64,000 bases of DNA from Candidatus Bathyarchaeota archaeon (GCA_963726255.1 CAVSBL010000002.1:608001-672000); one strand, 5' to 3'. Positions 5,756-54,970 are shown, counted from the stretch's first letter. Notes: a model not told the origin generated them from the letters alone. Numbers and translations are program-made.

Positions 5756-6744
5756 TGATGGAAAGTTCAGAGAAGAACATCGAACGCCTAGAGGCCCCCC
5801 AAAGCAACGACACACTCATGTTCCATCTGTCAAGAATGGGTCTCATCAGAAACGTCACGCTGAGCGACGGAACGATAGAATATCAAGTGACCGCCCGAGG
5901 TCTCCAATATATAGCAGACTATGAAGCTATTCAACACGAATCAGAGTCGTCGAGTTACACAATCCCTCATTTGAACACGGTTCCATTTCCGCCAGAAAAT
6001 GGAATTGCTTTTTTGCGTGCCTGCAACAAATCTGAATTCAGCTTACAACTCGAATATACCAATATGACGCGGGTATCCTTACTGATTCCCACGCTACATG
6101 AAAAGAAGAACATTGGGAATCTCTTGAATAGCTTAGCAGAAAACGTCCCAGGGCTCAAAGAGATAATCGTTGTTGACGGAGGCGGAGATGGGACCGCCGA
6201 AGTCGCGGCTGCACTAGGCGTGCGGGTCATTCTCCAAGAAGCAGTTGGAAAGGGTGATGCCTTGCGGCAGGCATTTGCAAGCAATTTTAGCGGAGACGTC
6301 GTTGTAACCATTGATGCTGATGGGTCGAACCGACCTGAAGAAATTCCGCGACTTGTCAAAGCCGTGCAGAACGGAGCAAGCATTGCGAAAGGGTCTCGCT
6401 TCTTAAAGGGTGGCGGATCAACTGACCTAAGCCGAATTCGGAAAATCGGCAACTACCTGTTCGTCCACCTCGTGAATCTAATCTGGCCAGGAGATTACAC
6501 GGACCTTTGCTATGGGTTCGTTGCTTTTAGGAGAGATGCGTTGATGAAGCTCGCGCCATTATTGGAATCGAAGCACTTCGAGATAGAAACAGAAATCTGC
6601 ATCAAGGCACGGAAACTTAGACTGAAAGTAGTAGAGGTACCCAGTATCGAACTAAAGCGACGGCATGGGACCTCCAAGTTGCGAGGGGTTCATGACAGCG
6701 TGCGCATAATGAAGACCGTAATACGCGAACTATTTTCCACTTGA
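5752..6744 (+). CDS. GT2 glycosyltransferase (DPM1-like) with N-terminal wHTH-like extension
   Basis: LLIPTLHE, VVDGG, IDADGS (DxD), GSRF, FEIETE motifs; GT2 core starts near Met at 6064. Confidence 0.85.
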   Translation: MMMESSEKNIERLEAPQSNDTLMFHLSRMGLIRNVTLSDGTIEYQVTARGLQYIADYEAIQHESESSSYTIPHLNTVPFPPENGIAFLRACNKSEFSLQLEYTNMTRVSLLIPTLHEKKNIGNLLNSLAENVPGLKEIIVVDGGGDGTAEVAAALGVRVILQEAVGKGDALRQAFASNFSGDVVVTIDADGSNRPEEIPRLVKAVQNGASIAKGSRFLKGGGSTDLSRIRKIGNYLFVHLVNLIWPGDYTDLCYGFVAFRRDALMKLAPLLESKHFEIETEICIKARKLRLKVVEVPSIELKRRHGTSKLRGVHDSVRIMKTVIRELFST

Positions 6745-6934
6745 CTTATTGGGTATAGTGCCTAGAGAACTTAATGGTTCCTATGAACGGGCTATCGTTG
6801 CACTCAAATAGTGCATCAGTGTAGTCGGTTTCGGTTATGACGAACGCGAAAAGTAACCGAAGGCTTGCAATACCAAACCCATTCACACTGGGCGGATTCG
6901 TTGTGCTTATAGCCCTGGTGGAAAGTCATTCAGC

Positions 6935-7552
6935 TTGAATAGCGGAGAAACCGAGAATTCTGGCGCTGAGACCCAGAGCCTAGATGCCCAAGCGCTAGGC
7001 TATCTAAAGAAGAAGGGCACCCTAAGCGTCCCGGAACTATACGAGGAGCTCAGAACTGGAAACCCCTCCCTAACCAGATCTGAGACCACGGACTTGGTTT
7101 GGCATCTGGTTGAACAGGAACAGGTTGATGTTAAAGACCAGCCACCCCCAGCCAAATCGCTTTGGGAATATCTGCGATTTTGGGAGCGGAACATTTCCTT
7201 CTACGTGCCATTGGCGATCTCACTAGCGACTGTACTCGTGATCTACATGGTGCCGCCTGAGTTTCCTTGGGTGGTCTCACGTTGGGTGGTTGGCTCAGTG
7301 TTTGTGCTCTTCCTTCCAGGATATGTGACGGTAGAGGCACTCTTCCCGAAGGCGCGTGACTTGGATGGAATCGAGCGTTTCGCGCTGAGTGTTGGGCTTA
7401 GTTTGGCTCTGGTTCCGCTGGTTGGTCTGCTATTGAACTATACTCCATGGGGGATCAGACTGACCCCGATCGTGATCTCGCTGAGCATCCTCACGCTAGG
7501 AATCGCCATGGTCGGATTGGTAAGACAATATAGAATGAAAAGTGATCACTGA
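6935..7552 (+). CDS. DUF1616-type membrane protein with N-terminal wHTH-like region
   Basis: LFLPGY...LFP...IERFALSVGLSLALVPLVGLLLNYTPWGI signature. Confidence 0.8.
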   Translation: MNSGETENSGAETQSLDAQALGYLKKKGTLSVPELYEELRTGNPSLTRSETTDLVWHLVEQEQVDVKDQPPPAKSLWEYLRFWERNISFYVPLAISLATVLVIYMVPPEFPWVVSRWVVGSVFVLFLPGYVTVEALFPKARDLDGIERFALSVGLSLALVPLVGLLLNYTPWGIRLTPIVISLSILTLGIAMVGLVRQYRMKSDH

Positions 7553-8605
7553 TTGCAAGATCTTGCACAGGAAAGCGTGGGCGTCCAAGTGAAGGTCAGT
7601 ATAGTTGGTCTGGGAAAGATGGGCTTGCTTCATGCAGGGATTGTCAATTCGCTGTCAGGCGCGACTGTGACCTCCGTATGCGAGAAGGATCTGTTCTTGT
7701 CGGCGGCTGCCAGAGCGATCTTACCGAAGAATGTAGTCGTGTACAGAGATGTCAGAAAGATGATTTCCGAGGAAGATTCAGACGCGGTTTTCGTGACCAC
7801 TCCCATTGACACTCATGTTTCCATAATACATGATTTACTCAAGGCAAAGACGGATCTCAGCGTGTTTGTGGAAAAACCCCTGGCGGTTTCTGACGAGCAA
7901 GCAAGGATTGCATGCGAAGTCACAAAGGGTTCACGAGGAGTGCACATGGTTGGATTCCAGAAGAGGTTCTCGCCAGTCTTTCAGAAAGCGCGGGAACTCC
8001 TGAAAGACACGGTTGAGGCGCCCATATTTTTCAGAGCATACTGTCTTTCTTCCGATGTGCTCCGCGAGGGAAGTGCGTGGCGATCAAAGAAGGGTTCTGG
8101 TGGGGTTCTGCTCGATTCGGCGCCTCACTTGTTGGATATTCTAATATGGTTTTTTGGAGAACCAACCTCCGTCATGGCGGTCAAAAAGCATGTGTACTCG
8201 CGTGCGGTTGAAGACTACGTTCACGCAATCTTTTCATTCGAATCGGGTTTGCAGGGGCACATAGATGCCTGTTGGAGCGTGAGCAATTATCGCCTTCCCG
8301 AATTCCTTCTTGAGATTCATGGAAGAAACGGGATGTTGACTGTAACCGATGATTTCGTCAAGTTTGCCACCGGAAAACAGGCAGGTGAGAAGGGAGGCGG
8401 GCGGGTGTATTACAGACAGTCCTTTCATACGAGAGTGCCTTTTCTCCTAACCGACGCAGAATACACGCTGGAGGACGTTGCTTTTCTAGACGCCATTCGA
8501 ACTCGAACCAAACCAGAAATGAATTTCGTTCAAGCTGCGAAAGTCAACGCCCTAATTGACAGAATTCTTCAGCACAGTGAACAAGGAGGGAGCAGATCAC
8601 GCTGA
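7553..8605 (+). CDS. Gfo/Idh/MocA family oxidoreductase
   Basis: IVGLGKMG, VFVEKP, GFQKRF, GGVLLDSAPHLLD. Confidence 0.9.
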   Translation: MQDLAQESVGVQVKVSIVGLGKMGLLHAGIVNSLSGATVTSVCEKDLFLSAAARAILPKNVVVYRDVRKMISEEDSDAVFVTTPIDTHVSIIHDLLKAKTDLSVFVEKPLAVSDEQARIACEVTKGSRGVHMVGFQKRFSPVFQKARELLKDTVEAPIFFRAYCLSSDVLREGSAWRSKKGSGGVLLDSAPHLLDILIWFFGEPTSVMAVKKHVYSRAVEDYVHAIFSFESGLQGHIDACWSVSNYRLPEFLLEIHGRNGMLTVTDDFVKFATGKQAGEKGGGRVYYRQSFHTRVPFLLTDAEYTLEDVAFLDAIRTRTKPEMNFVQAAKVNALIDRILQHSEQGGSRSR

Positions 8606-9498
8606 AAACTCTGCTAATTGGAGACAATAGTTTCATCGGAGTAAGCCACCTGTCGCAGGAAAGAGCAAGAGAAAGAGCAGAAAAGCTCGATGTGAAATCA
8701 CTCGTCGAAATAGTTGAGACCGCTGTCTCATGCGGAGCGACAGGGTACACGTTCTCCACACATCCAGTAAATCTACGGATTTTGAAGGCATTGCAAAATT
8801 CATCGAAAATCAGGGATGAATTTGGCCTGTACCCAGTACTTCCATATGCTCAAGCCTATGTGAGACTTGCAAATGAGAAGGGAATGAGAGGCCTAATCGA
8901 CGACATCCTGTCTAGGCTATCGTTGCCCGACAAAGCGAAAGCCCTCTTCAAAAGTAGTTTCTCTGCGCTTCGACTAGACCCGCTCGGGCTCTTGAAGGCG
9001 TATGTAGACATGGAACTCGCGGGTTACCTCAGTGAGAAACCGGAAAATGCCACGCTTCGGAGTGTGCTGCTCCATGAAGTGGTTACGGATCTCTGCTTGG
9101 GGTTACGAGATGTTCAATTGTTGGATGCTTTTGCTCAGCACATACGAGAAAAGTATCATGCTAGCCCAGGGTTTGTGACCTACAATCTCGTGGGGCTAGT
9201 CGAGCTGCTGCGAAAAGCAGGACTTACCTTAGAAGACATGGTCATCATGACTCCTTTCAATAGTGCCGGATACCAAATGAGTCCCTCGAGGCAATTATGC
9301 GAAACATGTCTGTCAACCTTAGACGAAGCAGATGTCATCGCCATGAGCATCATAGCAGGAGGCTACCTGAAATTTGACGAAGCCTTTGACTACATTCGAA
9401 CATTGCCAAACCTTTCAGGAATAGCTGTTGGGGTTTCATCCAAAGAACATGCAAAAGAAACATTCACGAAGCTCGACGAACTCTTACCTAGAGACTGA
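8602..9498 (+). CDS. Conserved hypothetical protein, possibly aldo/keto-reductase-like fold; probable CTG start
   Basis: Frame is open upstream of GTG 8692 and encodes LLIGDNSFIGVSHLSQERAR; CTG at 8602 overlaps the upstream TGA; GGAGGG upstream. Confidence 0.7.
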   Translation: MKTLLIGDNSFIGVSHLSQERARERAEKLDVKSLVEIVETAVSCGATGYTFSTHPVNLRILKALQNSSKIRDEFGLYPVLPYAQAYVRLANEKGMRGLIDDILSRLSLPDKAKALFKSSFSALRLDPLGLLKAYVDMELAGYLSEKPENATLRSVLLHEVVTDLCLGLRDVQLLDAFAQHIREKYHASPGFVTYNLVGLVELLRKAGLTLEDMVIMTPFNSAGYQMSPSRQLCETCLSTLDEADVIAMSIIAGGYLKFDEAFDYIRTLPNLSGIAVGVSSKEHAKETFTKLDELLPRD

Positions 9499-45757: not shown

Positions 45758-46147
45758 TTAGCTTTCGCCTATGATTTGCAGCCATACTTCCCGCCTGGAG
45801 CGCGGGCCGTCAAGTTCAACCACGAAAATGTTCTGCCAGGTGCCTCTAACCAGTCGGCCATCTACGATCGGGAACGTTCGAGAGTGTCCAAGAAATGCCG
45901 CGGCTAAGTGGGCGTCCGCGTTATCGTCGATGGCGTTGTGGCGGTAGCTCCGAGATACCGGGAAAACATCCTCGATCTTCGCGAGCACGTCTTGCATTAG
46001 ACCGCTTTCATGTTCATTTGCGATTACTGCCGCAGTTGCGTGGGGTACGCTGATGATGCAGATTCCGTTCTTTATTCCGGCGTTTTCAACGAGGCCCATA
46101 ACTTGAGGCGTAATATCCATGAGTTGCCTTCTATCTGACGACCTCAA
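45758..46147 (-). CDS. YjbQ/UPF0047 family protein
   Basis: PHATAA, NADAH, GTWQNIFVVELDGPR; true start probably near 46178. Confidence 0.9.
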   Translation of the reverse strand: MRSSDRRQLMDITPQVMGLVENAGIKNGICIISVPHATAAVIANEHESGLMQDVLAKIEDVFPVSRSYRHNAIDDNADAHLAAAFLGHSRTFPIVDGRLVRGTWQNIFVVELDGPRSRREVWLQIIGES

Positions 46148-46240
46148 CGTCAGAAGCTTGCTAATGACAGTCGTTCAACTGCACCTCTATCGGGTGCAGG
46201 TAAAAGTAGAGGGGATTGAAAAAGGGATGGGGAAGCTCGG

Positions 46241-46858
46241 TTACATCCGAGCTTCGCTAGTCGGAATGGGTGGCAACTCTGGGAAGCGCTCCTTCATCTT
46301 TTGCTCAGCCACTAAGTTGGCTTCCTGAAGTATCTTCTGCGACTCGCCGCTGGATGATGAGATGTCGAAGGTGTTTTCAGTAGTTTCTCCAACTTCCACG
46401 CTCAGTTCTTCAAGTGTTTCGTTTACACTGGAGAGTTCTAATGAGACCTCGGGCATCACGCCCTCCAACTGCGATTTTAGTGTTCTTACCACGCCGGCGA
46501 CCGGCAGCATCGTGTAGGCTAGCTGACCGAACTCGTTCACAGCTTCTAATCGCAACGTAACTTGTTCGAGGGCTAGTTCGCTGTGTAAGACGACCTTCGC
46601 TATCTTTCTGAGTTCAGCGCATTCGTTGGCATAGATTGATGCGAGTTCAGTGTTCTTTCCTTGAACCGCTAGGACGCATTTTCCATATAGTGCTTGGTCG
46701 CGTTCCTGCATATGGTATGACGTCCTCTCGAGTTTTCGTTGTTGAACCTTTAGCTTGAATAGGCATTGACTTACGCGCTGTTTCATTGGGGTGGGGTGTA
46801 TTGCTTCCTTGAGCTTTTTACTCCACGGATTTCTCTCTTTGAACATGCTATCTATCAC
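46241..46858 (-). CDS. cdvB: ESCRT-III/Snf7 paralog (CdvB1/2-like)
   Basis: ASIYANECAELRK, LALEQVTLRLE; C-terminal FPELPPIP MIM2-like motif. Confidence 0.9.
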   Translation of the reverse strand: MIDSMFKERNPWSKKLKEAIHPTPMKQRVSQCLFKLKVQQRKLERTSYHMQERDQALYGKCVLAVQGKNTELASIYANECAELRKIAKVVLHSELALEQVTLRLEAVNEFGQLAYTMLPVAGVVRTLKSQLEGVMPEVSLELSSVNETLEELSVEVGETTENTFDISSSSGESQKILQEANLVAEQKMKERFPELPPIPTSEARM

Positions 46859-47370
46859 CCCTTTGTGAGTGTTCCATTCCCGCCGCTTTCGTTCGTTGCT
46901 TTTTCGTGTTCGTTGGCCAAGATCTTCAGGAAATTGCCGAGCCTGCCTTCTTCGAAAATTCGTATTATTGATCCGGTGTATTCGATCTTGACATTGAGGG
47001 ACCGTAGTTTCGTCATCAACTTCTCGATTTCCGACTTGTTCTTTCCCACCAGGAAGACAAGCCCTTCGGGTTCGCCCAGCGAGCTTACTACTTTCACTGT
47101 TTGTGGGATTGCCGCAATTTTCTCAATGATGGCATCTCTTTCTGTGTCTCTCGGGAAGCTGGCGCCAACTAGAATTTGTTCGGCGACTCCAAGTTTCTCC
47201 AGGTCCAGGTCGGCTGTATAGTCCTTGATTACACCGTTCTTCTCTAGCTTGTTCACGCGGTAGGCGACAACATTTGGGTGAAGGCTCAGCTTTCGTCCGA
47301 TTTCCGCAAAGGAGTACTTGGCGTTTTCAACAAGTTCCGCTAGGATCTTGTAGTCTACTGAATCTATCAT
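46855..47370 (-). CDS. Lrp/AsnC family transcriptional regulator
   Basis: DSVDYKILAELVENAKYSFAEIGRKL...RVNKLEKNGVIKDY...LDLEKLG plus RAM-like domain. Confidence 0.9.
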   Translation of the reverse strand: MIDSVDYKILAELVENAKYSFAEIGRKLSLHPNVVAYRVNKLEKNGVIKDYTADLDLEKLGVAEQILVGASFPRDTERDAIIEKIAAIPQTVKVVSSLGEPEGLVFLVGKNKSEIEKLMTKLRSLNVKIEYTGSIIRIFEEGRLGNFLKILANEHEKATNESGGNGTLTKG

Positions 47371-47382
47371 TTCATTCTTACC

Positions 47383-48519
47383 TCAAAGTGCTTTGTATGT
47401 TTCAAACCACTTATCGTAAAGGCCCAGCATTTGGAGCGAAACGCTTGGTTTGCGTCTTCTCAAGATCTCTCTGAAATCGTCCATAGTAATCGGTCGTGCT
47501 TGACCTTGAGCCTTCGGAGTGCTGGCTTCGAATAATTCACGCACGACTCTTGTTTGGGCTCCTTGGAATATGTCACGAAAGTCGCTCCCTGAGTATCCTT
47601 CCGTCTTCTGAATTAGCGTCTCCTGATCTATGTCATGGTCGAGCCGGAGCTCCTTCGCGTAAATGCTAAACAGTTCTCTCCTAGCTTCAGAGTTGGGGAG
47701 TGGGACGTAGATTCGTTTCTGGAATCTGCGTATGAATGGCTCATCCAAGGCCCAGGGCTTGTTCGTTGCTCCAATCACGTATACGTGGCTCTGGCGTTTC
47801 TTGTCCAAGATGTTGTCCATTTCCTTGAGAAATTGGTTGCGGGTTCTAACCTCGCCACCTACTTCGTCTCCTCGAATTCCAACCAGCGAGTCTACTTCAT
47901 CAATGAAAATTATGACGGGGTGTCCTTCCTTCGATGCTTTATGTGCTGAACCAAAGAGTTCAGCGACATTTTTCTCAGACTCACCTAGCCACTTTGACAT
48001 TATGGAAGCAGCGTCAACGCTGTAGAATACTGCATCAATCTCAGTGGCAATTGCAGCGGCTAGAAGGGTTTTGCCGCAGCCCGGTGGGCCGAAGAATAAT
48101 ATTCCTCTCGGCCACCCTAATGGGAAAAGGTCTGGGCGCTTTACTGGAAAGACTATAGATTCCTCGATGGCCTTCTTGGCGTCGTGGAGATTGGCTATCT
48201 CACCCCACTTGATGTTCGGTTTCTCTGCCAACACGAGGTGTTCAAGTTTTGTGGATTGCCCTAGGCTTGGGCGTTCATCCAAGTGCCCATTCTCATCCTT
48301 AAGCTCCTTGATCCTACGCTTGCAATTTTCGACCTGTTGCATGTACAGTCGGGTTTGGGGGGCTTCCGGGTAGAACGTGCAGAGTTTCAGCAGTATCTCA
48401 GCTGTCCGTTCGTACCTTGAAATCGCATTCGATTTTGCGCCTTGCTTATCAAACTGTACTGCTTCGTTTGCGAATCTTGCAGCCATTTGCTCGAGTTCTT
48501 CAGAGGCCGAAAGTTGCAT
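47383..48519 (-). CDS. cdvC: CdvC/Vps4 AAA+ ATPase with MIT domain
   Basis: N-terminal MIT helices, GPPGCGKT, SKWLGESEK, IIFIDE, IRRFQKR. Confidence 0.93.
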   Translation of the reverse strand: MQLSASEELEQMAARFANEAVQFDKQGAKSNAISRYERTAEILLKLCTFYPEAPQTRLYMQQVENCKRRIKELKDENGHLDERPSLGQSTKLEHLVLAEKPNIKWGEIANLHDAKKAIEESIVFPVKRPDLFPLGWPRGILFFGPPGCGKTLLAAAIATEIDAVFYSVDAASIMSKWLGESEKNVAELFGSAHKASKEGHPVIIFIDEVDSLVGIRGDEVGGEVRTRNQFLKEMDNILDKKRQSHVYVIGATNKPWALDEPFIRRFQKRIYVPLPNSEARRELFSIYAKELRLDHDIDQETLIQKTEGYSGSDFRDIFQGAQTRVVRELFEASTPKAQGQARPITMDDFREILRRRKPSVSLQMLGLYDKWFETYKAL

Positions 48520-48536
48520 GAATAAGCACTCGCTGA

Positions 48537-49316
48537 TTATTCGATTACGACCTTTCCGTTTTCCCGTAGTCTCTGTATGGCAGTTTTCACTTCAACCGGG
48601 GAGGCATGCAGCTCTTCCGCGCATGACTCAACACTCATCTCACCGTCATGCTTTCTGGCGTAATTGTAAACTTGGTCGTCGATGCCCGATTCCATATCAG
48701 GGATCGCAGGTTCGGGAACTGCCACTTTTTGAGTTGCCTCTATGGTCGGAAGATCTGGGAAATGTTCATGCAACTTCTGTTCTGCGATCAGACCAGTCTC
48801 TTCGAGGACTTTTCGCGCTTCTGCGTCGGACGTTTCCACGGATAGCGTGCTTGTCGTTACTTCGCCGGTTTCGTAGGTTAGGTCACCCAGCAAGTTGTTG
48901 ACTTCTTCGAGCTCATCGGCTACTTGCGGAACAATTCCGGCGATTTTTGATTTCGTTTCCTTAACTATGCCCATGACGGGGGCTATGTCGGAGATGATTG
49001 TGCCGAATTCTCCGACCGTTTCGAGTCTGAGGATTACTTTTTCCAAGGCTAGCTGACTGCCCAAGACAACTTGGGCGATTTTTCTTATTTCGGCGCATTC
49101 ATTGGCGTAGATTCTGGCGTGTCCTAAGTCGTTTGAGAGCTGAGCACCCACACAGCGTTGGAAAAGGTCAGTGTCACGTTGGTGGAGGCGCGCATACATG
49201 TGTTCCAGTTTGTCAAGTTGCGCGTTGAGCCTGAATGAGGCGTGCTCTATTCGTTCCTTTAGTGGTACGGGGTGAACCTTGTCTTCGAATTTTCTAAAGA
49301 TGGAGAAGGTAACCAC
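48537..49316 (-). CDS. cdvB: CdvB (ESCRT-III core plus C-terminal winged helix)
   Basis: Snf7 core, FPDLP motif, C-terminal wH (VYNYARKHDG...AIQRLRENGKV); lies between cdvA and cdvC. Confidence 0.92.
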   Translation of the reverse strand: MVTFSIFRKFEDKVHPVPLKERIEHASFRLNAQLDKLEHMYARLHQRDTDLFQRCVGAQLSNDLGHARIYANECAEIRKIAQVVLGSQLALEKVILRLETVGEFGTIISDIAPVMGIVKETKSKIAGIVPQVADELEEVNNLLGDLTYETGEVTTSTLSVETSDAEARKVLEETGLIAEQKLHEHFPDLPTIEATQKVAVPEPAIPDMESGIDDQVYNYARKHDGEMSVESCAEELHASPVEVKTAIQRLRENGKVVIE

Positions 49317-49328
49317 ATCCTACCGTGG

Positions 49329-50012
49329 TTAGGCTGATTCTCGCATCTTGATTACTACAACATCAGGGATTTTTGGCGGGGCCGAGGTTTCAGTGGTCGT
49401 TATTGAGGCGTCTAGGTTATCGATTGTTTGCAGTGATTCCTTGGTGTTGTCAATGTCCTTTCGCTCTTTTCGAGCGATTTCGAGTCCCGCTCGAATGGAT
49501 CCGGTAACAGAGTGGTATGTGTTCTCGTCGATTTCAGCAGCTGTGTAGAGCATCTTATTGTTCGTTAGGGCTGTTTGAAGGTCTTTGATTTGTTGTTCGA
49601 GCTTTGCTACCTGTTCCTTTAGCGTTTCAACTACTTTTTCGCGTTTTGCAATGATCTCTTTGTTTATGTCCTCGTAACTGTTTCGGAGTTGGTTGTACTC
49701 GGGTTGGTCTATGTCTCCGTCTCTTAGAAGCAGGTCGAGCGCTTGCCTTCTTCTCTTGACGATGTCGTGTTCCCTTTTGAGATCCTCGGCCTCGACGCGC
49801 CACGCCTCTAGTATAATTGGATGTCCGTCGATGACTCTGACGCAACTTATCGGATATTCTGCAACCCCGCCGTCCCCCAGGGCTACTTGGACGGCCTGTA
49901 CCTCATCTTTGATATCCGCTGTAAGCCCCACTAGCTTACCTGTGGGCCGTCCCATCGGATCCTCAAGCGACTGCCCTAGGTACTTTCCAATCTGTTCTAT
50001 GGTCAGGTTCAA
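49329..50012 (-). CDS. cdvA: CdvA cell division protein
   Basis: PRC-barrel-like N-terminus (YLGQSLEDPMGR), long coiled coil, C-terminal PDVVVIK beta-peptide. Confidence 0.88.
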   Translation of the reverse strand: MNLTIEQIGKYLGQSLEDPMGRPTGKLVGLTADIKDEVQAVQVALGDGGVAEYPISCVRVIDGHPIILEAWRVEAEDLKREHDIVKRRRQALDLLLRDGDIDQPEYNQLRNSYEDINKEIIAKREKVVETLKEQVAKLEQQIKDLQTALTNNKMLYTAAEIDENTYHSVTGSIRAGLEIARKERKDIDNTKESLQTIDNLDASITTTETSAPPKIPDVVVIKMRESA

Positions 50013-50026
50013 GACGAATTGATCCT

Positions 50027-50686
50027 CTAGTGAGAAATTCCGGCTTCGCCAACTTTCGGGCGAGATGCGATCCCGTTGCTCGGGAGGTCTGGGAAGATGT
50101 TCTTCATGTGCTGCTCTGCAATGGTGTTTGCCTCGCCGAGGATTCTTTGAGCCTCTTCCCCAGATGCGTTCACATCATAATTTGACCCGGTGACTTCGCC
50201 TGCTTCGTCAACGACACCGCTTAGAACTTCTCCTATCTGTCCGAGTTCGAAGCCTACTTCTGGCATTACACCCGATATCTGGCTCTTGATTGAGTGGACA
50301 ACGCTCGCTACAGGCGCCATCATTTTGGCTACGTCGCCAAATTCCTCAATTGTCTGAAGGCGTAGGTAGACTTGTTCCAGGGCCATCTGGCATTGAACCG
50401 TTACCTTGGCCATCTTGCGCACTTCTGCGCACTCGTTCGCATACATCATCGCTCGCGCATTGTCATGAGCCATCTGTGAACTCACGCACTTCGCGAAAAT
50501 CTCCTTGTCGTGCTGTTGCATGCGATTAGCGGCTGTTTCAAGCTTGTTTTTCTGAACGTTTAGTCTGTAGAGCGCCGAAGAGATCTGTTCCTTTACAGCC
50601 GGTTTGTGATGGAATCGGTCACCGACTCGTGTGAAAACAGGTTCTCTTTGGTCGTTATCCCAGTCCTTTAGGAATCCTTGGTTCAT
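50027..50686 (-). CDS. cdvB: ESCRT-III/Snf7 paralog (CdvB1/2-like)
   Basis: RAMMYANECAEVRK, ALEQVYLRLQT, FPDLP; ATG 50686 follows a GGTGA SD. Confidence 0.9.
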   Translation of the reverse strand: MNQGFLKDWDNDQREPVFTRVGDRFHHKPAVKEQISSALYRLNVQKNKLETAANRMQQHDKEIFAKCVSSQMAHDNARAMMYANECAEVRKMAKVTVQCQMALEQVYLRLQTIEEFGDVAKMMAPVASVVHSIKSQISGVMPEVGFELGQIGEVLSGVVDEAGEVTGSNYDVNASGEEAQRILGEANTIAEQHMKNIFPDLPSNGIASRPKVGEAGISH

Positions 50687-50729
50687 TATCACTTTCACCA
50701 GTTTGTGTTTGCAACAATTCTTCGTGTTT

Positions 50730-50763
50730 GTTCTGCGTACGCGAACGAATGCTATTCAAATTT
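50730..50763 (-). promoter_or_regulatory. Putative cdv promoter: TATA-like box followed by a near-palindrome
   Basis: Minus strand GAAATTTGAATA, then GTTCGCGTACGCAGAAC. Confidence 0.45.
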
Positions 50764-51040
50764 CATGCAAGAAAACTGTCAAGATTTAGTGAGTCACCGA
50801 AAGGGGTTTCTCATAATCATCGTTCAGGAACTAGAAGTGCATCATATTCTGATGTAACACAGAAACGAGCTCCGGCCTAGTGTGCGTGAAAGGCAACCAT
50901 CCCGAGCCGGATCTTGTTGATTCCACTAATCTGGCCTAGGATTCAACAAACAACGCTGCGAACCCTACTGTAAACCGAAAAACAGCGAAAGAAACTTGGA
51001 TTTTCACGTCAGACCGTGCGTTCCGGTGTGGCCACCCATG

Positions 51041-51373
51041 TCATATCTTCTTCAGTTTGATTTCGATTGATGAAACGTTTCTCGTGTCGCCACCTTCTCC
51101 GAGCACTTCCGTTCCGATGCTTATTTCCTGGACCGCGAGTTTCCCTGCAAAGAATCTGCGGCGTACAACCTCGACAACGTCCACGGCTGTGCTGATCGCC
51201 CGCCCTCTAGCCTTGACGCTTAAAGTTTGAGCACCTGCCTGGAAATGCATCATTACGGCGGTCGCGTAGGCCATTATAGGCTTCTTTCCAATCAGAATTG
51301 TGTCCGGTGGAATAGGCTGTCGAACCCTCGCTTCCTGCCTTGGTGGGGATGGAGCTGCCTTCTCCTGTGCCAT
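51041..51373 (-). CDS. albA: DNA/RNA-binding protein Alba
   Basis: ILIGKKPIMAY, VKARGRAISTAVDVVE, RNVSSIEI. Confidence 0.93.
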   Translation of the reverse strand: MAQEKAAPSPPRQEARVRQPIPPDTILIGKKPIMAYATAVMMHFQAGAQTLSVKARGRAISTAVDVVEVVRRRFFAGKLAVQEISIGTEVLGEGGDTRNVSSIEIKLKKI

Positions 51374-51514
51374 GCCTTCGTCACCTCCTAGTATTGCAAA
51401 GTCCTCTGATGCGGTATGCTTCGCTGGAATGCTTGAGCGAAGATGCGTAAGCTTCAAGCTTCGTATTTGTCAATTTCGGTTAGGTTGCTGTTGAGTTGAG
51501 TAAAGCCTTGAATT

Positions 51515-54892: not shown

Positions 54893-54970
54893 GGGCGGGT
54901 AGCCTAGCCTGGATAGGGCACAGGCCTCCGGAGCCTGAGGTCGGGGGTTCGAATCCCTCCCCGCCCGCCA
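54893..54970 (+). tRNA. tRNA-Arg(CCG), CCA encoded, intronless
   Basis: GGGCGGG/CCCGCCC acceptor, CAGGC-CTCCGGA-GCCTG anticodon arm, GGTTCGAATCC. Confidence 0.95.

Follow-up and report, generated by a model that had tools for sequence, protein, structure and literature searches.

Control of ESCRT-based cell division in archaea is, to our knowledge, known from Sulfolobales only, where it is exerted through ribbon-helix-helix (RHH) factors encoded elsewhere. The Sulfolobales division genes include a cdvA-cdvB-cdvC locus, with cdvB1, cdvB2 and cdvB3 dispersed (PMC10936438). In Bathyarchaeota B24, genes for ESCRT-III, CdvA, ESCRT-III, Vps4 and an Lrp-family protein (arCOG01580) are listed on one strand, and the Lrp gene is not flagged as a component of the system (Table S2 of Makarova et al., 2024, PMC10936438). 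The present analysis concerns a 64,000-nt stretch of DNA, hereafter the window, from a Candidatus Bathyarchaeota archaeon (GCA_963726255.1, CAVSBL010000002.1:608001-672000), whose minus strand carries a six-gene cdv locus with an Lrp/AsnC-family regulator gene (here Lrp) embedded in it. Coordinates are positions in this stretch throughout.

The original prediction, made from the sequence of the window, knew of no description of this arrangement. That is nearly right: the same gene order is tabulated for B24, but there the Lrp gene goes unflagged, and the main text of the same paper (PMC10936438) has no occurrence of "Lrp". Searching PMC11237479 gives no match for Lrp or AsnC, and the 2024 review "The Archaeal Cell Cycle" (PMC7617429) gives none for Lrp or Bathyarch. 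A literature search that left subscription journals outside its reach found no paper discussing an Lrp in a cdv locus and none on the control of ESCRT-based division in Bathyarchaeia. What appears new here is the phyletic pattern of Lrp, its narrow subfamily, an extra C-terminal helix and a candidate operator whose presence follows that of the gene.

Judged from the comparison of loci, one large bathyarchaeal lineage has fixed a dedicated Lrp gene between cdvC and the second short ESCRT-III gene of its division operon. The favoured reading is that Lrp is a fixed regulator of this operon that binds half-sites in the leader and autoregulates the whole cdv operon; taken as one statement, this is held here as probable, with moderate confidence.

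Six co-oriented open reading frames (ORFs) span 46241-50698 on the minus strand and encode, 5' to 3', a short ESCRT-III paralogue (E3a), CdvA, CdvB, CdvC/Vps4, Lrp and a second short ESCRT-III paralogue (E3c). The ORF listing together with Pfam and NCBIfam matches reproduces exactly the order and coordinates first proposed. Spacing from E3a to Lrp is 14, 12, 17 and 12 nt, followed by a 4-nt Lrp/E3c overlap (GTGA), in agreement with the predicted gaps of 12-17 nt or a 4-nt overlap. The Lrp gene (46855-47370, 171 aa) matches PF13404 HTH_AsnC at 1.7e-11 (44.2 bits, above the cut-off of 27).

Comparative evidence supports well the view that Lrp is a conserved member of the operon, vertically co-inherited with cdvC. 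Orthologues are separated from paralogues by a gap: the best match reaches E<=1.6e-46 in 33 of 40 relatives, all others are at E 2.2e-17 or weaker, and none falls between. The closest paralogue in the same genome is 31% identical. CdvC lies immediately 5' of the Lrp orthologue in 29/29 and 18/18 relatives' loci, and directly 5' of Lrp in 78 of the 80 loci found with an Lrp alignment, the other two beginning at a contig end; these three sets share genomes. The same adjacency holds in all 10 loci from three further families filed outside the window's class. Absence of Lrp from orthologous loci, which the original prediction had named as grounds for its refutation, was not found, as Lrp follows CdvC in every locus with flanking sequence. 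The full core of E3a, CdvA, CdvB, CdvC and Lrp is present in 65 of the 80 loci, and the distance from CdvC to Lrp by tblastn is 8-226 nt (median 24). The gene next to Lrp is E3c in 35 loci; in another 35 an insert of ~1.2 kb comes between the two. E3c is absent from one locus, and the flank is too short in nine. Identity to the window copy is correlated between Lrp and CdvC (Spearman 0.93, n=73), and its median is 58% for Lrp, 52% for E3c, 50% for CdvB and 36% for CdvA. An apparent fusion of Lrp with ESCRT-III in one locus (L013) is an artefact, a stop codon separating the two genes in translation.

Among 201 genomes sampled from the window's class, 46 carry an Lrp orthologue, and a true CdvC occurs in most families. 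Twenty CdvC loci inspected from families with and without Lrp generally have the E3a, CdvA, CdvB, CdvC core in common. The operon ends at CdvC in families f17, f20, f22, f27, f30, f32 and f33, where the next gene is convergent or unrelated; f8 and f10 (genus g17), which fall in the same taxonomic order as the window, have E3c directly after CdvC and no Lrp, and f16 and part of f14 have CdvC followed by Lrp. A CdvC tree of 100 rows, built quickly and rooted at the midpoint, has a branch with 99% support that splits 12 Lrp-lacking rows from 88 others (82 Lrp-bearing and six nested Lrp-lacking). Lrp presence requires a minimum of five label changes on this tree, of which well-supported branches force at least two. 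One gain of Lrp followed by a few losses would be the simplest reading of the tree.

Judged from profile searches, Lrp is a narrow subfamily that is seen in this context only. Against 1.84 billion representative proteins the Lrp profile gives 13290 matches at 1e-3 and eight at 1e-30, the latter comprising three full-length single-domain proteins, three fragments and two tandem proteins (315 and 345 aa). No non-bathyarchaeal genome among 401 sampled matches the profile at E<=1e-25, and in this phylum-wide sample the 30 best CdvC loci, used as a control, are all free of Lrp-like neighbours within 1.5 kb; 28 of them lie outside the window's class, Sulfolobales-type loci among them. Past the few true orthologues, the top matches are proteins of ~310-350 aa in which two Lrp-like halves stand in tandem (P0007-P0150). 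A lead from Aigarchaeota comes from Table S2 of PMC10936438: in archaeon HR01, an "unclassified" thermophile metagenome-assembled genome (MAG), the gene immediately 5' of Vps4, in the same orientation, is of the Lrp family, and HR02 has an Lrp-family gene in a Vps4 neighbourhood. Since no non-bathyarchaeal match reaches 1e-25 and only three full-length proteins reach 1e-30, these two genes are probably not orthologues, and they may represent an independent Lrp-Vps4 linkage.

The operon also occurs in an extended form. In 35 of the 80 loci, a 154-aa membrane protein with no Pfam match and a 229-aa ATP-binding cassette (ABC) ATPase (PF00005, 5.4e-28) are inserted between Lrp and E3c, and most insert-bearing loci add a second CdvA-like gene after E3c (in L095, PF18822 at 9.6e-5, with the insert region at 6482-8892 of that locus). 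The window's genus has the compact form, without the membrane protein/ABC pair and with no second CdvA anywhere in the genome. Six operon contigs (L058, L059, L066, L098, L105 and L125) were deposited as bacterial MAGs under the labels Acidoferrum, Methylomirabilota, Acidiferrales, Dormiibacterota, "bacterium" and Verrucomicrobia; contigs that carry a bathyarchaeal operon under a bacterial label are probably mis-binned.

A candidate operator for Lrp lies in the leader of the first gene. Upstream regions from 18 members of the window's genus align over ~200 nt before that gene and not further upstream. From distal to proximal, all on the minus strand, the alignment contains a nearly invariant block ATCAGAATA (50845-50853), a conserved block GATTATGAGAAAC-N4-TTTCGG (50797-50818) and an almost invariant core promoter block TTGACAGYTTTCTT..GAAATTTGAATAG (50752-50782) that is unique in the window and includes a predicted TATA-like box, TTTGAATAG (50752-50760), with a putative B recognition element (BRE)/TATA assignment. 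Downstream of it is the candidate operator, ACAA-N10-TTGT-N7-ACAA (50703-50731), whose arms are conserved and whose spacer varies within the genus, and which GGTG and an ATG follow. Its proximal part is a 15-bp palindrome, TTGT-N7-ACAA (50703-50717), that sits 17 nt 5' of the ATG at 50686, between the TATA-like box and the start codon. Palindromic sites of 15 bp are of the usual size for the Lrp/AsnC family, as in the sites of Ss-LrpB and FL11. In other Lrp-bearing families, a TATA-like box is followed after ~25-30 nt by ACAA-N6-TTGT-N7-ACAA and then a Shine-Dalgarno (SD) sequence, a layout that puts the half-site starts ~10-11 nt apart. The first half-site would fall at the position expected for an archaeal transcription start site.

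The palindrome tracks the presence of Lrp. A scan of the 260 nt preceding the first cdv gene finds an exact TTGT-N7-ACAA in 44 of the 73 loci with Lrp and in none of the 17 without it, against 0.8% of shuffled sequences; with up to one mismatch the counts are 68/73 and 3/17, against 15% of shuffles. None of the five scored Lrp-lacking lineages nested in the Lrp clade (f8 twice, f10, f14 and f27) has the exact site; the Lrp-bearing kin L150 and L151 do carry it, and a third, L167, a one-mismatch version. The genus consensus of the site is found once in the 2.42-Mb genome, at the cdv promoter. The one other match to the three half-sites (C2:430263-430293) is taken as chance because it falls inside a low-complexity coding repeat; the source is a 283-aa ORF with a long Asn/Tyr/Gly/Cys-rich repeat (C2:430071-430922; L166 1571-2422, minus strand). 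The leader was also considered as an RNA structure and rejected, its minimum free energy of -6.8 kcal/mol giving a z of -0.09 against shuffles. Invariant arms, a variable spacer and a leader that folds no better than shuffles favour a protein-DNA site over an RNA structure.

Two promoter features extend to families without Lrp. A block consisting of a T-run, [GTA]ACA, N3, TTCTT and a TATA-like sequence, at 50752-50782 in the window, lies upstream of cdv in Lrp-bearing families and also in the Lrp-lacking f8 and f10 (L146-L148 and many others). Its presence in f8 makes it independent of Lrp; an extended promoter, or a site for another conserved factor, may be what it represents. The Lrp-lacking families f17, f30, f32 and f33 have a different conserved palindrome, of the ACGTATATACGT type, and a CATATTAACAATGTA block at the same promoter position (L136-L138, L144, L145 and L152). 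This second palindrome suggests that the cdv operon of those families is under another regulator.

Under the favoured reading, the six cdv genes would be read from one promoter, with the TATA-like box as above and a predicted start site near 50728-50730. An Lrp dimer or higher oligomer would bind the alternating ACAA/TTGT/ACAA half-sites, which would lie at and just downstream of the predicted start site, with a spacing near one helical turn in most families. Such binding would govern how strongly or when the division operon as a whole is expressed, Lrp included. A repressor-type feedback loop would be the most likely form, because binding downstream of the TATA box by archaeal LrpA-type regulators usually blocks polymerase. 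Autoregulation is common among Lrp/AsnC regulators. The original prediction of a dedicated Lrp that controls the cdv genes is upheld as to the conserved position of the gene and gains a candidate operator that co-occurs with it; binding itself is what we infer from the two. A ligand input to Lrp is at most a possibility, and the further proposal of amino-acid sensing and nutrient coupling is speculative, family membership being its one basis.

Several observations weigh against autoregulation by Lrp. The exact palindrome is missing from 29 of the 73 Lrp-bearing loci, and the six f41 loci have no palindrome or a poor one-mismatch site and an identical recognition helix. Because one-mismatch sites arise in 15% of shuffles, part of the 68/73 is noise. 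The loci are related, so that the contrast between Lrp-bearing and Lrp-lacking loci amounts to ~3-4 independent Lrp losses and one deep split on a quick midpoint-rooted tree. Across the genome the generic palindrome shows no enrichment, with 27 sites where ~37 are expected, and the window has one where 1.1 are expected. The positions of the TATA box and start site are predictions, there may be an internal promoter within cdvC or the Lrp gene, and the Pfam RAM-domain model gives no match to Lrp at E<0.01.

Some of these observations are in line with a regulator that is co-expressed with the division genes and acts mainly in trans on the cell cycle or growth, the palindrome being bound otherwise or being one of many targets. 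Position within the operon would guarantee such co-expression, the 27 generic sites could be targets across the genome, and f41 retains Lrp with the same recognition helix and no clear palindrome at its cdv promoter. The haloarchaeal CdrS, a small regulator co-transcribed with ftsZ2, is an earlier example of a factor tied to a division gene whose targets extend further (PMC7439475, PMC8406309). This alternative is nevertheless rather unlikely, with a chance that should be taken seriously: the genus consensus and the non-coding three-half-site composite are unique to the cdv promoter, and the site and Lrp are lost together in nested lineages.

The Lrp protein itself bears on how such a regulator would work. 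An AlphaFold model built from 22 orthologues (mean predicted local distance difference test score, pLDDT, 78.5) has helix-turn-helix (HTH) helices at residues 4-15, 21-27 and 32-44, followed by a RAM-type domain of beta-alpha-beta-beta-alpha-beta order (strand 64-71, helix 78-86, strands 91-96 and 103-109, helix 112-124, strand 128-134) and an added C-terminal helix at residues ~144-165. Foldseek matches in the PDB, among those listed to E 1e-5, are ST1022, FL11/PH1519, LrpA, LrpC, AsnC, Lrp and the Lrp-like sirohaem decarboxylase AhbA/B. A profile search of PDB sequences finds LrpC at 1.4e-16 and no match past query position 142. The best curated family match is LysM, a lysine-biosynthesis regulator (2.1e-15, residues 1-130). 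All ~93 orthologues have the recognition-helix motif HPNV[VI][AG]YR without exception, and the C-terminal helix pattern G-x-F-L-K-x-L-A is kept across them, the helix being shorter in f41. On the model, Lrp is a member of the Lrp/AsnC family, having both the HTH and the RAM-type domain. The RHH fold of CdrS and aCcr1 is not found in it, and Lrp may act like these factors without being a member of their family.

The conserved amphipathic C-terminal helix, which has no counterpart in solved Lrp/AsnC structures (aligned to residues 1-142), could instead point to a mainly architectural or protein-level role. Lrp would then be a DNA-wrapping oligomer that ties the nucleoid or a chromosomal site to CdvA/ESCRT-III, or would contact Cdv proteins through this helix. 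DNA wrapping by octamers is known for the Lrp family, the GTGA overlap would couple Lrp translationally to the downstream ESCRT-III gene, and Lrp is conserved on a par with CdvC. Such a role is very unlikely, however. None of the Cdv genes was found fused to Lrp, the single apparent case being the artefact described above; several lineages without Lrp keep the rest of the operon, which makes Lrp dispensable for the machine; and the invariant recognition helix with its matching palindrome points to sequence-specific reading of DNA. A complex prediction for the MIT domain of CdvC (residues 1-88) with whole Lrp scored 0.00, "no answer", and speaks neither for nor against such contact.

An ordinary metabolic (feast/famine) regulator left beside cdvC by inertia, with an internal promoter of its own and no tie to division, would accord with the abundance of Lrp/AsnC proteins (13290 representatives at E<=1e-3), a best curated match to LysM at only 2.1e-15 and the possibility of internal promoters, but it is hardly credible given a CdvC-Lrp adjacency that all loci with flank retain, in many families, a narrow subfamily confined to this context, co-divergence of Lrp with CdvC, no adjoining amino-acid biosynthesis or transport genes in the window, and a co-loss of the leader palindrome that it leaves unexplained.

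Autoregulation of the cdv operon by Lrp remains the favoured reading, and a bolder version of it goes further. Lrp would then be the master switch of ESCRT cytokinesis in FtsZ-less Bathyarchaeia, reading a metabolite through its RAM domain and acting on three helically phased half-sites at the transcription start of the only cdv operon, so that division would be gated by nutrient state, with its lineage-specific C-terminal helix as a direct protein-level link to the Cdv machinery. This joint version is quite unlikely; if true, both the regulator family and the logic would be new for any ESCRT-based division system.

The identities of the operon's genes come from profile matches that are in part below threshold. 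Among the NCBIfam Cdv models, NF041005 and NF041008 have cut-offs tuned to Sulfolobales, and those of NF041006 and NF041007 are equivalog cut-offs. E3a (50027-50698, 223 aa) is a CdvB1/B2-like paralogue without a winged helix that matches NF041005 at 2.9e-63 and Snf7 weakly. CdvA (49329-50012, 227 aa) matches PF18822 at 2.2e-17 (63.7 bits, above the cut-off of 30) and NF041007 over residues 4-204 at 2e-22, with a score under the equivalog cut-off. CdvB (48537-49316, 259 aa) consists of ESCRT-III and a C-terminal winged helix; its residues 11-259 align with positions 13-259 of the 260-position model NF041008 (4.5e-45, under cut-off), it matches NF041005 at 1.7e-52, and it has no Pfam Snf7 match at E<0.01. 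CdvC/Vps4 (47383-48519, 378 aa) combines MIT (1.7e-6; 28.4 bits, cut-off 30), AAA+ (AAA, 6.7e-39) and Vps4_C (1.1e-3; 19.3 bits, cut-off 21.3) and matches NF041006 at 4.5e-154 with a score of 512.8 bits over residues 4-377 (cut-off 650). E3c (46241-46858, 205 aa), also CdvB1/B2-like, matches NF041005 at 4.7e-57 and has a GTG start that overlaps the Lrp stop. The NF041005 (CdvB1/B2) matches of all three ESCRT-III proteins score under cut-off.

Two finer claims about the ESCRT-III proteins agree with their translations. An FP[D/E]LP motif, resembling the MIT-interacting motif MIM2, had been proposed for all three, and it is found as FPDLP near the C-terminus of E3a, FPDLP in CdvB and FPELP in E3c. 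A winged helix had been assigned to the middle ESCRT-III alone; the end-to-end alignment with NF041008 is unique to the 259-aa protein, which makes it the sole ESCRT-III of the locus with the winged-helix part. The first gene call places the start of E3a at a GTG (50698), and this is corrected here to a likely start at the ATG at 50686. At that position 17 of the 18 genus members in the alignment have a start codon (ATG, GTG or TTG), with GGTG/GGAG in front of it; the column of the GTG at 50698 is unconserved.

Close packing, SD-like sequences, the stop/start overlap and synonymous-site peaks confined to junctions make it plausible that the six genes are one transcription unit. SD-like sequences occur at the gene junctions, such as GAGGT 9-10 nt 5' of the Lrp ATG. 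A scan of synonymous-site conservation for an internal promoter gives peaks of modest height where genes meet and in the 5' part of E3c. Across the genus, third-codon-position conservation is highest at 46673-46778 (the 5' part of E3c) and 46814-46891 (the Lrp/E3c junction), at 0.69-0.78 against a mean of 0.57. This could reflect a constraint from translation initiation or an embedded signal. A bacterial-type promoter/terminator scan, whose model does not apply to archaea, gave counts at shuffle level and was set aside.

Metatranscriptomic matches come from three RNA runs, all of one study, that contain 7-8% of the sampled words. RNA contigs 95-99% alike cover the 3' end of E3c (46202-46452), parts of cdvC (48012-48199) and cdvA (49393-49802), and the neighbouring Alba gene, with DNA carry-over possible. 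One contig that is 91% alike (46692-46884) spans the Lrp/E3c junction and has fewer than 31 letters on the Lrp side, and hence was not scored as bridging. Such contigs are no proof of transcription and show neither a single transcript nor transcript ends, and the uncovered parts are uninformative. The likely end of the operon (46177-46226, minus strand) consists of T-rich tracts at 46199-46226, found where the original prediction had placed such a tract beyond the last gene, and then a short hairpin at 46177-46200. The RNA contigs over the 3' end of E3c stop at 46202-46220, a weak hint of an operon end.

The host assembly is a Bathyarchaeia MAG of 2.42 Mb in five contigs, with an estimated completeness of 98.5% and contamination of 9.3%. 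Near-identical and related contigs are filed under soil and peat MAGs of Candidatus Bathyarchaeia or Bathyarchaeota. The genome has three ESCRT-III genes in a search of the assembly, one CdvA match and one CdvC-grade match, all at the cdv locus. No tubulin/FtsZ (PF00091) match was found in this 98.5%-complete assembly by a search that was positive in 13 of 14 control genomes. With the only ESCRT-III, CdvA and CdvC of the genome and no FtsZ match beside them, the locus amounts to the whole recognisable division machinery. It thus appears to be the single, complete Cdv cell-division operon of an FtsZ-less Bathyarchaeia archaeon, with a predicted role in cytokinesis. The suggestion of a complete division machine is borne out by this gene complement, and the question of an ftsZ elsewhere is answered by the negative search.

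The genes around the operon are of other kinds. Just upstream is a gene for the Alba chromatin protein (51041-51457, minus strand); Alba lies upstream of cdv in many families, co-directional in the window's genus and divergent elsewhere (loci L055-L134). Downstream of the operon, in genus g14 as in the window's genus, is a YjbQ/UPF0047 gene (45758-46147, minus strand). An Rfam scan of the window gave one match, a tRNA gene at 54893-54967 on the plus strand.

Bathyarchaeia are a widespread soil and sediment group, and the locus offers two handles on their division: a dedicated regulator vertically inherited in the division operon, and a short, precisely located candidate operator. Binding of the one to the other is a hypothesis that can be tested without culture, and the lineages that have lost Lrp and lack the site serve as built-in comparative controls. 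If Lrp does sense a ligand, it would connect metabolism directly to cytokinesis in an archaeon that divides by ESCRT.

Compared with described systems, the machinery resembles the Sulfolobales Cdv proteins in having a CdvA with its coiled-coil domain, a CdvB of ESCRT-III and winged helix, and a CdvC of MIT-AAA+ Vps4 type. Its short ESCRT-III paralogues without a winged helix, with proline-rich MIM2-like tails, are likewise similar to Sulfolobales CdvB1/B2. Unlike in Sulfolobales, all paralogues are in one operon, a short ESCRT-III comes first, and an Lrp/AsnC gene is embedded after cdvC. The extended bathyarchaeal form shares the five-gene core and the Lrp subfamily, whereas the form in the window is compact, with the Lrp stop overlapping the ESCRT-III start.

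The proposed regulator has parallels in two other systems. In the haloarchaeal CdrS-ftsZ2 pair, and with CdrL, a small transcription factor is likewise linked in one unit to a core division gene and controls division genes (PMC7439475, PMC8406309); CdrS is an RHH protein of an FtsZ-based system, whereas the protein here is an HTH and RAM Lrp/AsnC member in an ESCRT-based one, making the likeness one of analogy and not homology. Sulfolobales aCcr1 is, like the present Lrp, a transcription factor for cdv genes, and it binds cdv promoters (PMC9976878), whereas binding is a prediction here; aCcr1 has the RHH fold and its gene lies apart from the cdv locus, in contrast to an Lrp/AsnC protein encoded inside the operon. 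Among solved archaeal Lrp/AsnC (feast/famine regulatory) proteins, Lrp shares its two-domain fold with ST1022/Grp, FL11 (PH1519), LrpA, LrpC and AsnC. It differs from them in identity (<= ~31%), in its extra C-terminal helix and in a context of division genes rather than amino-acid metabolism, and its beta-strand loop has an invariant G-x-P-E in place of the G-D-N-D of ST1022.

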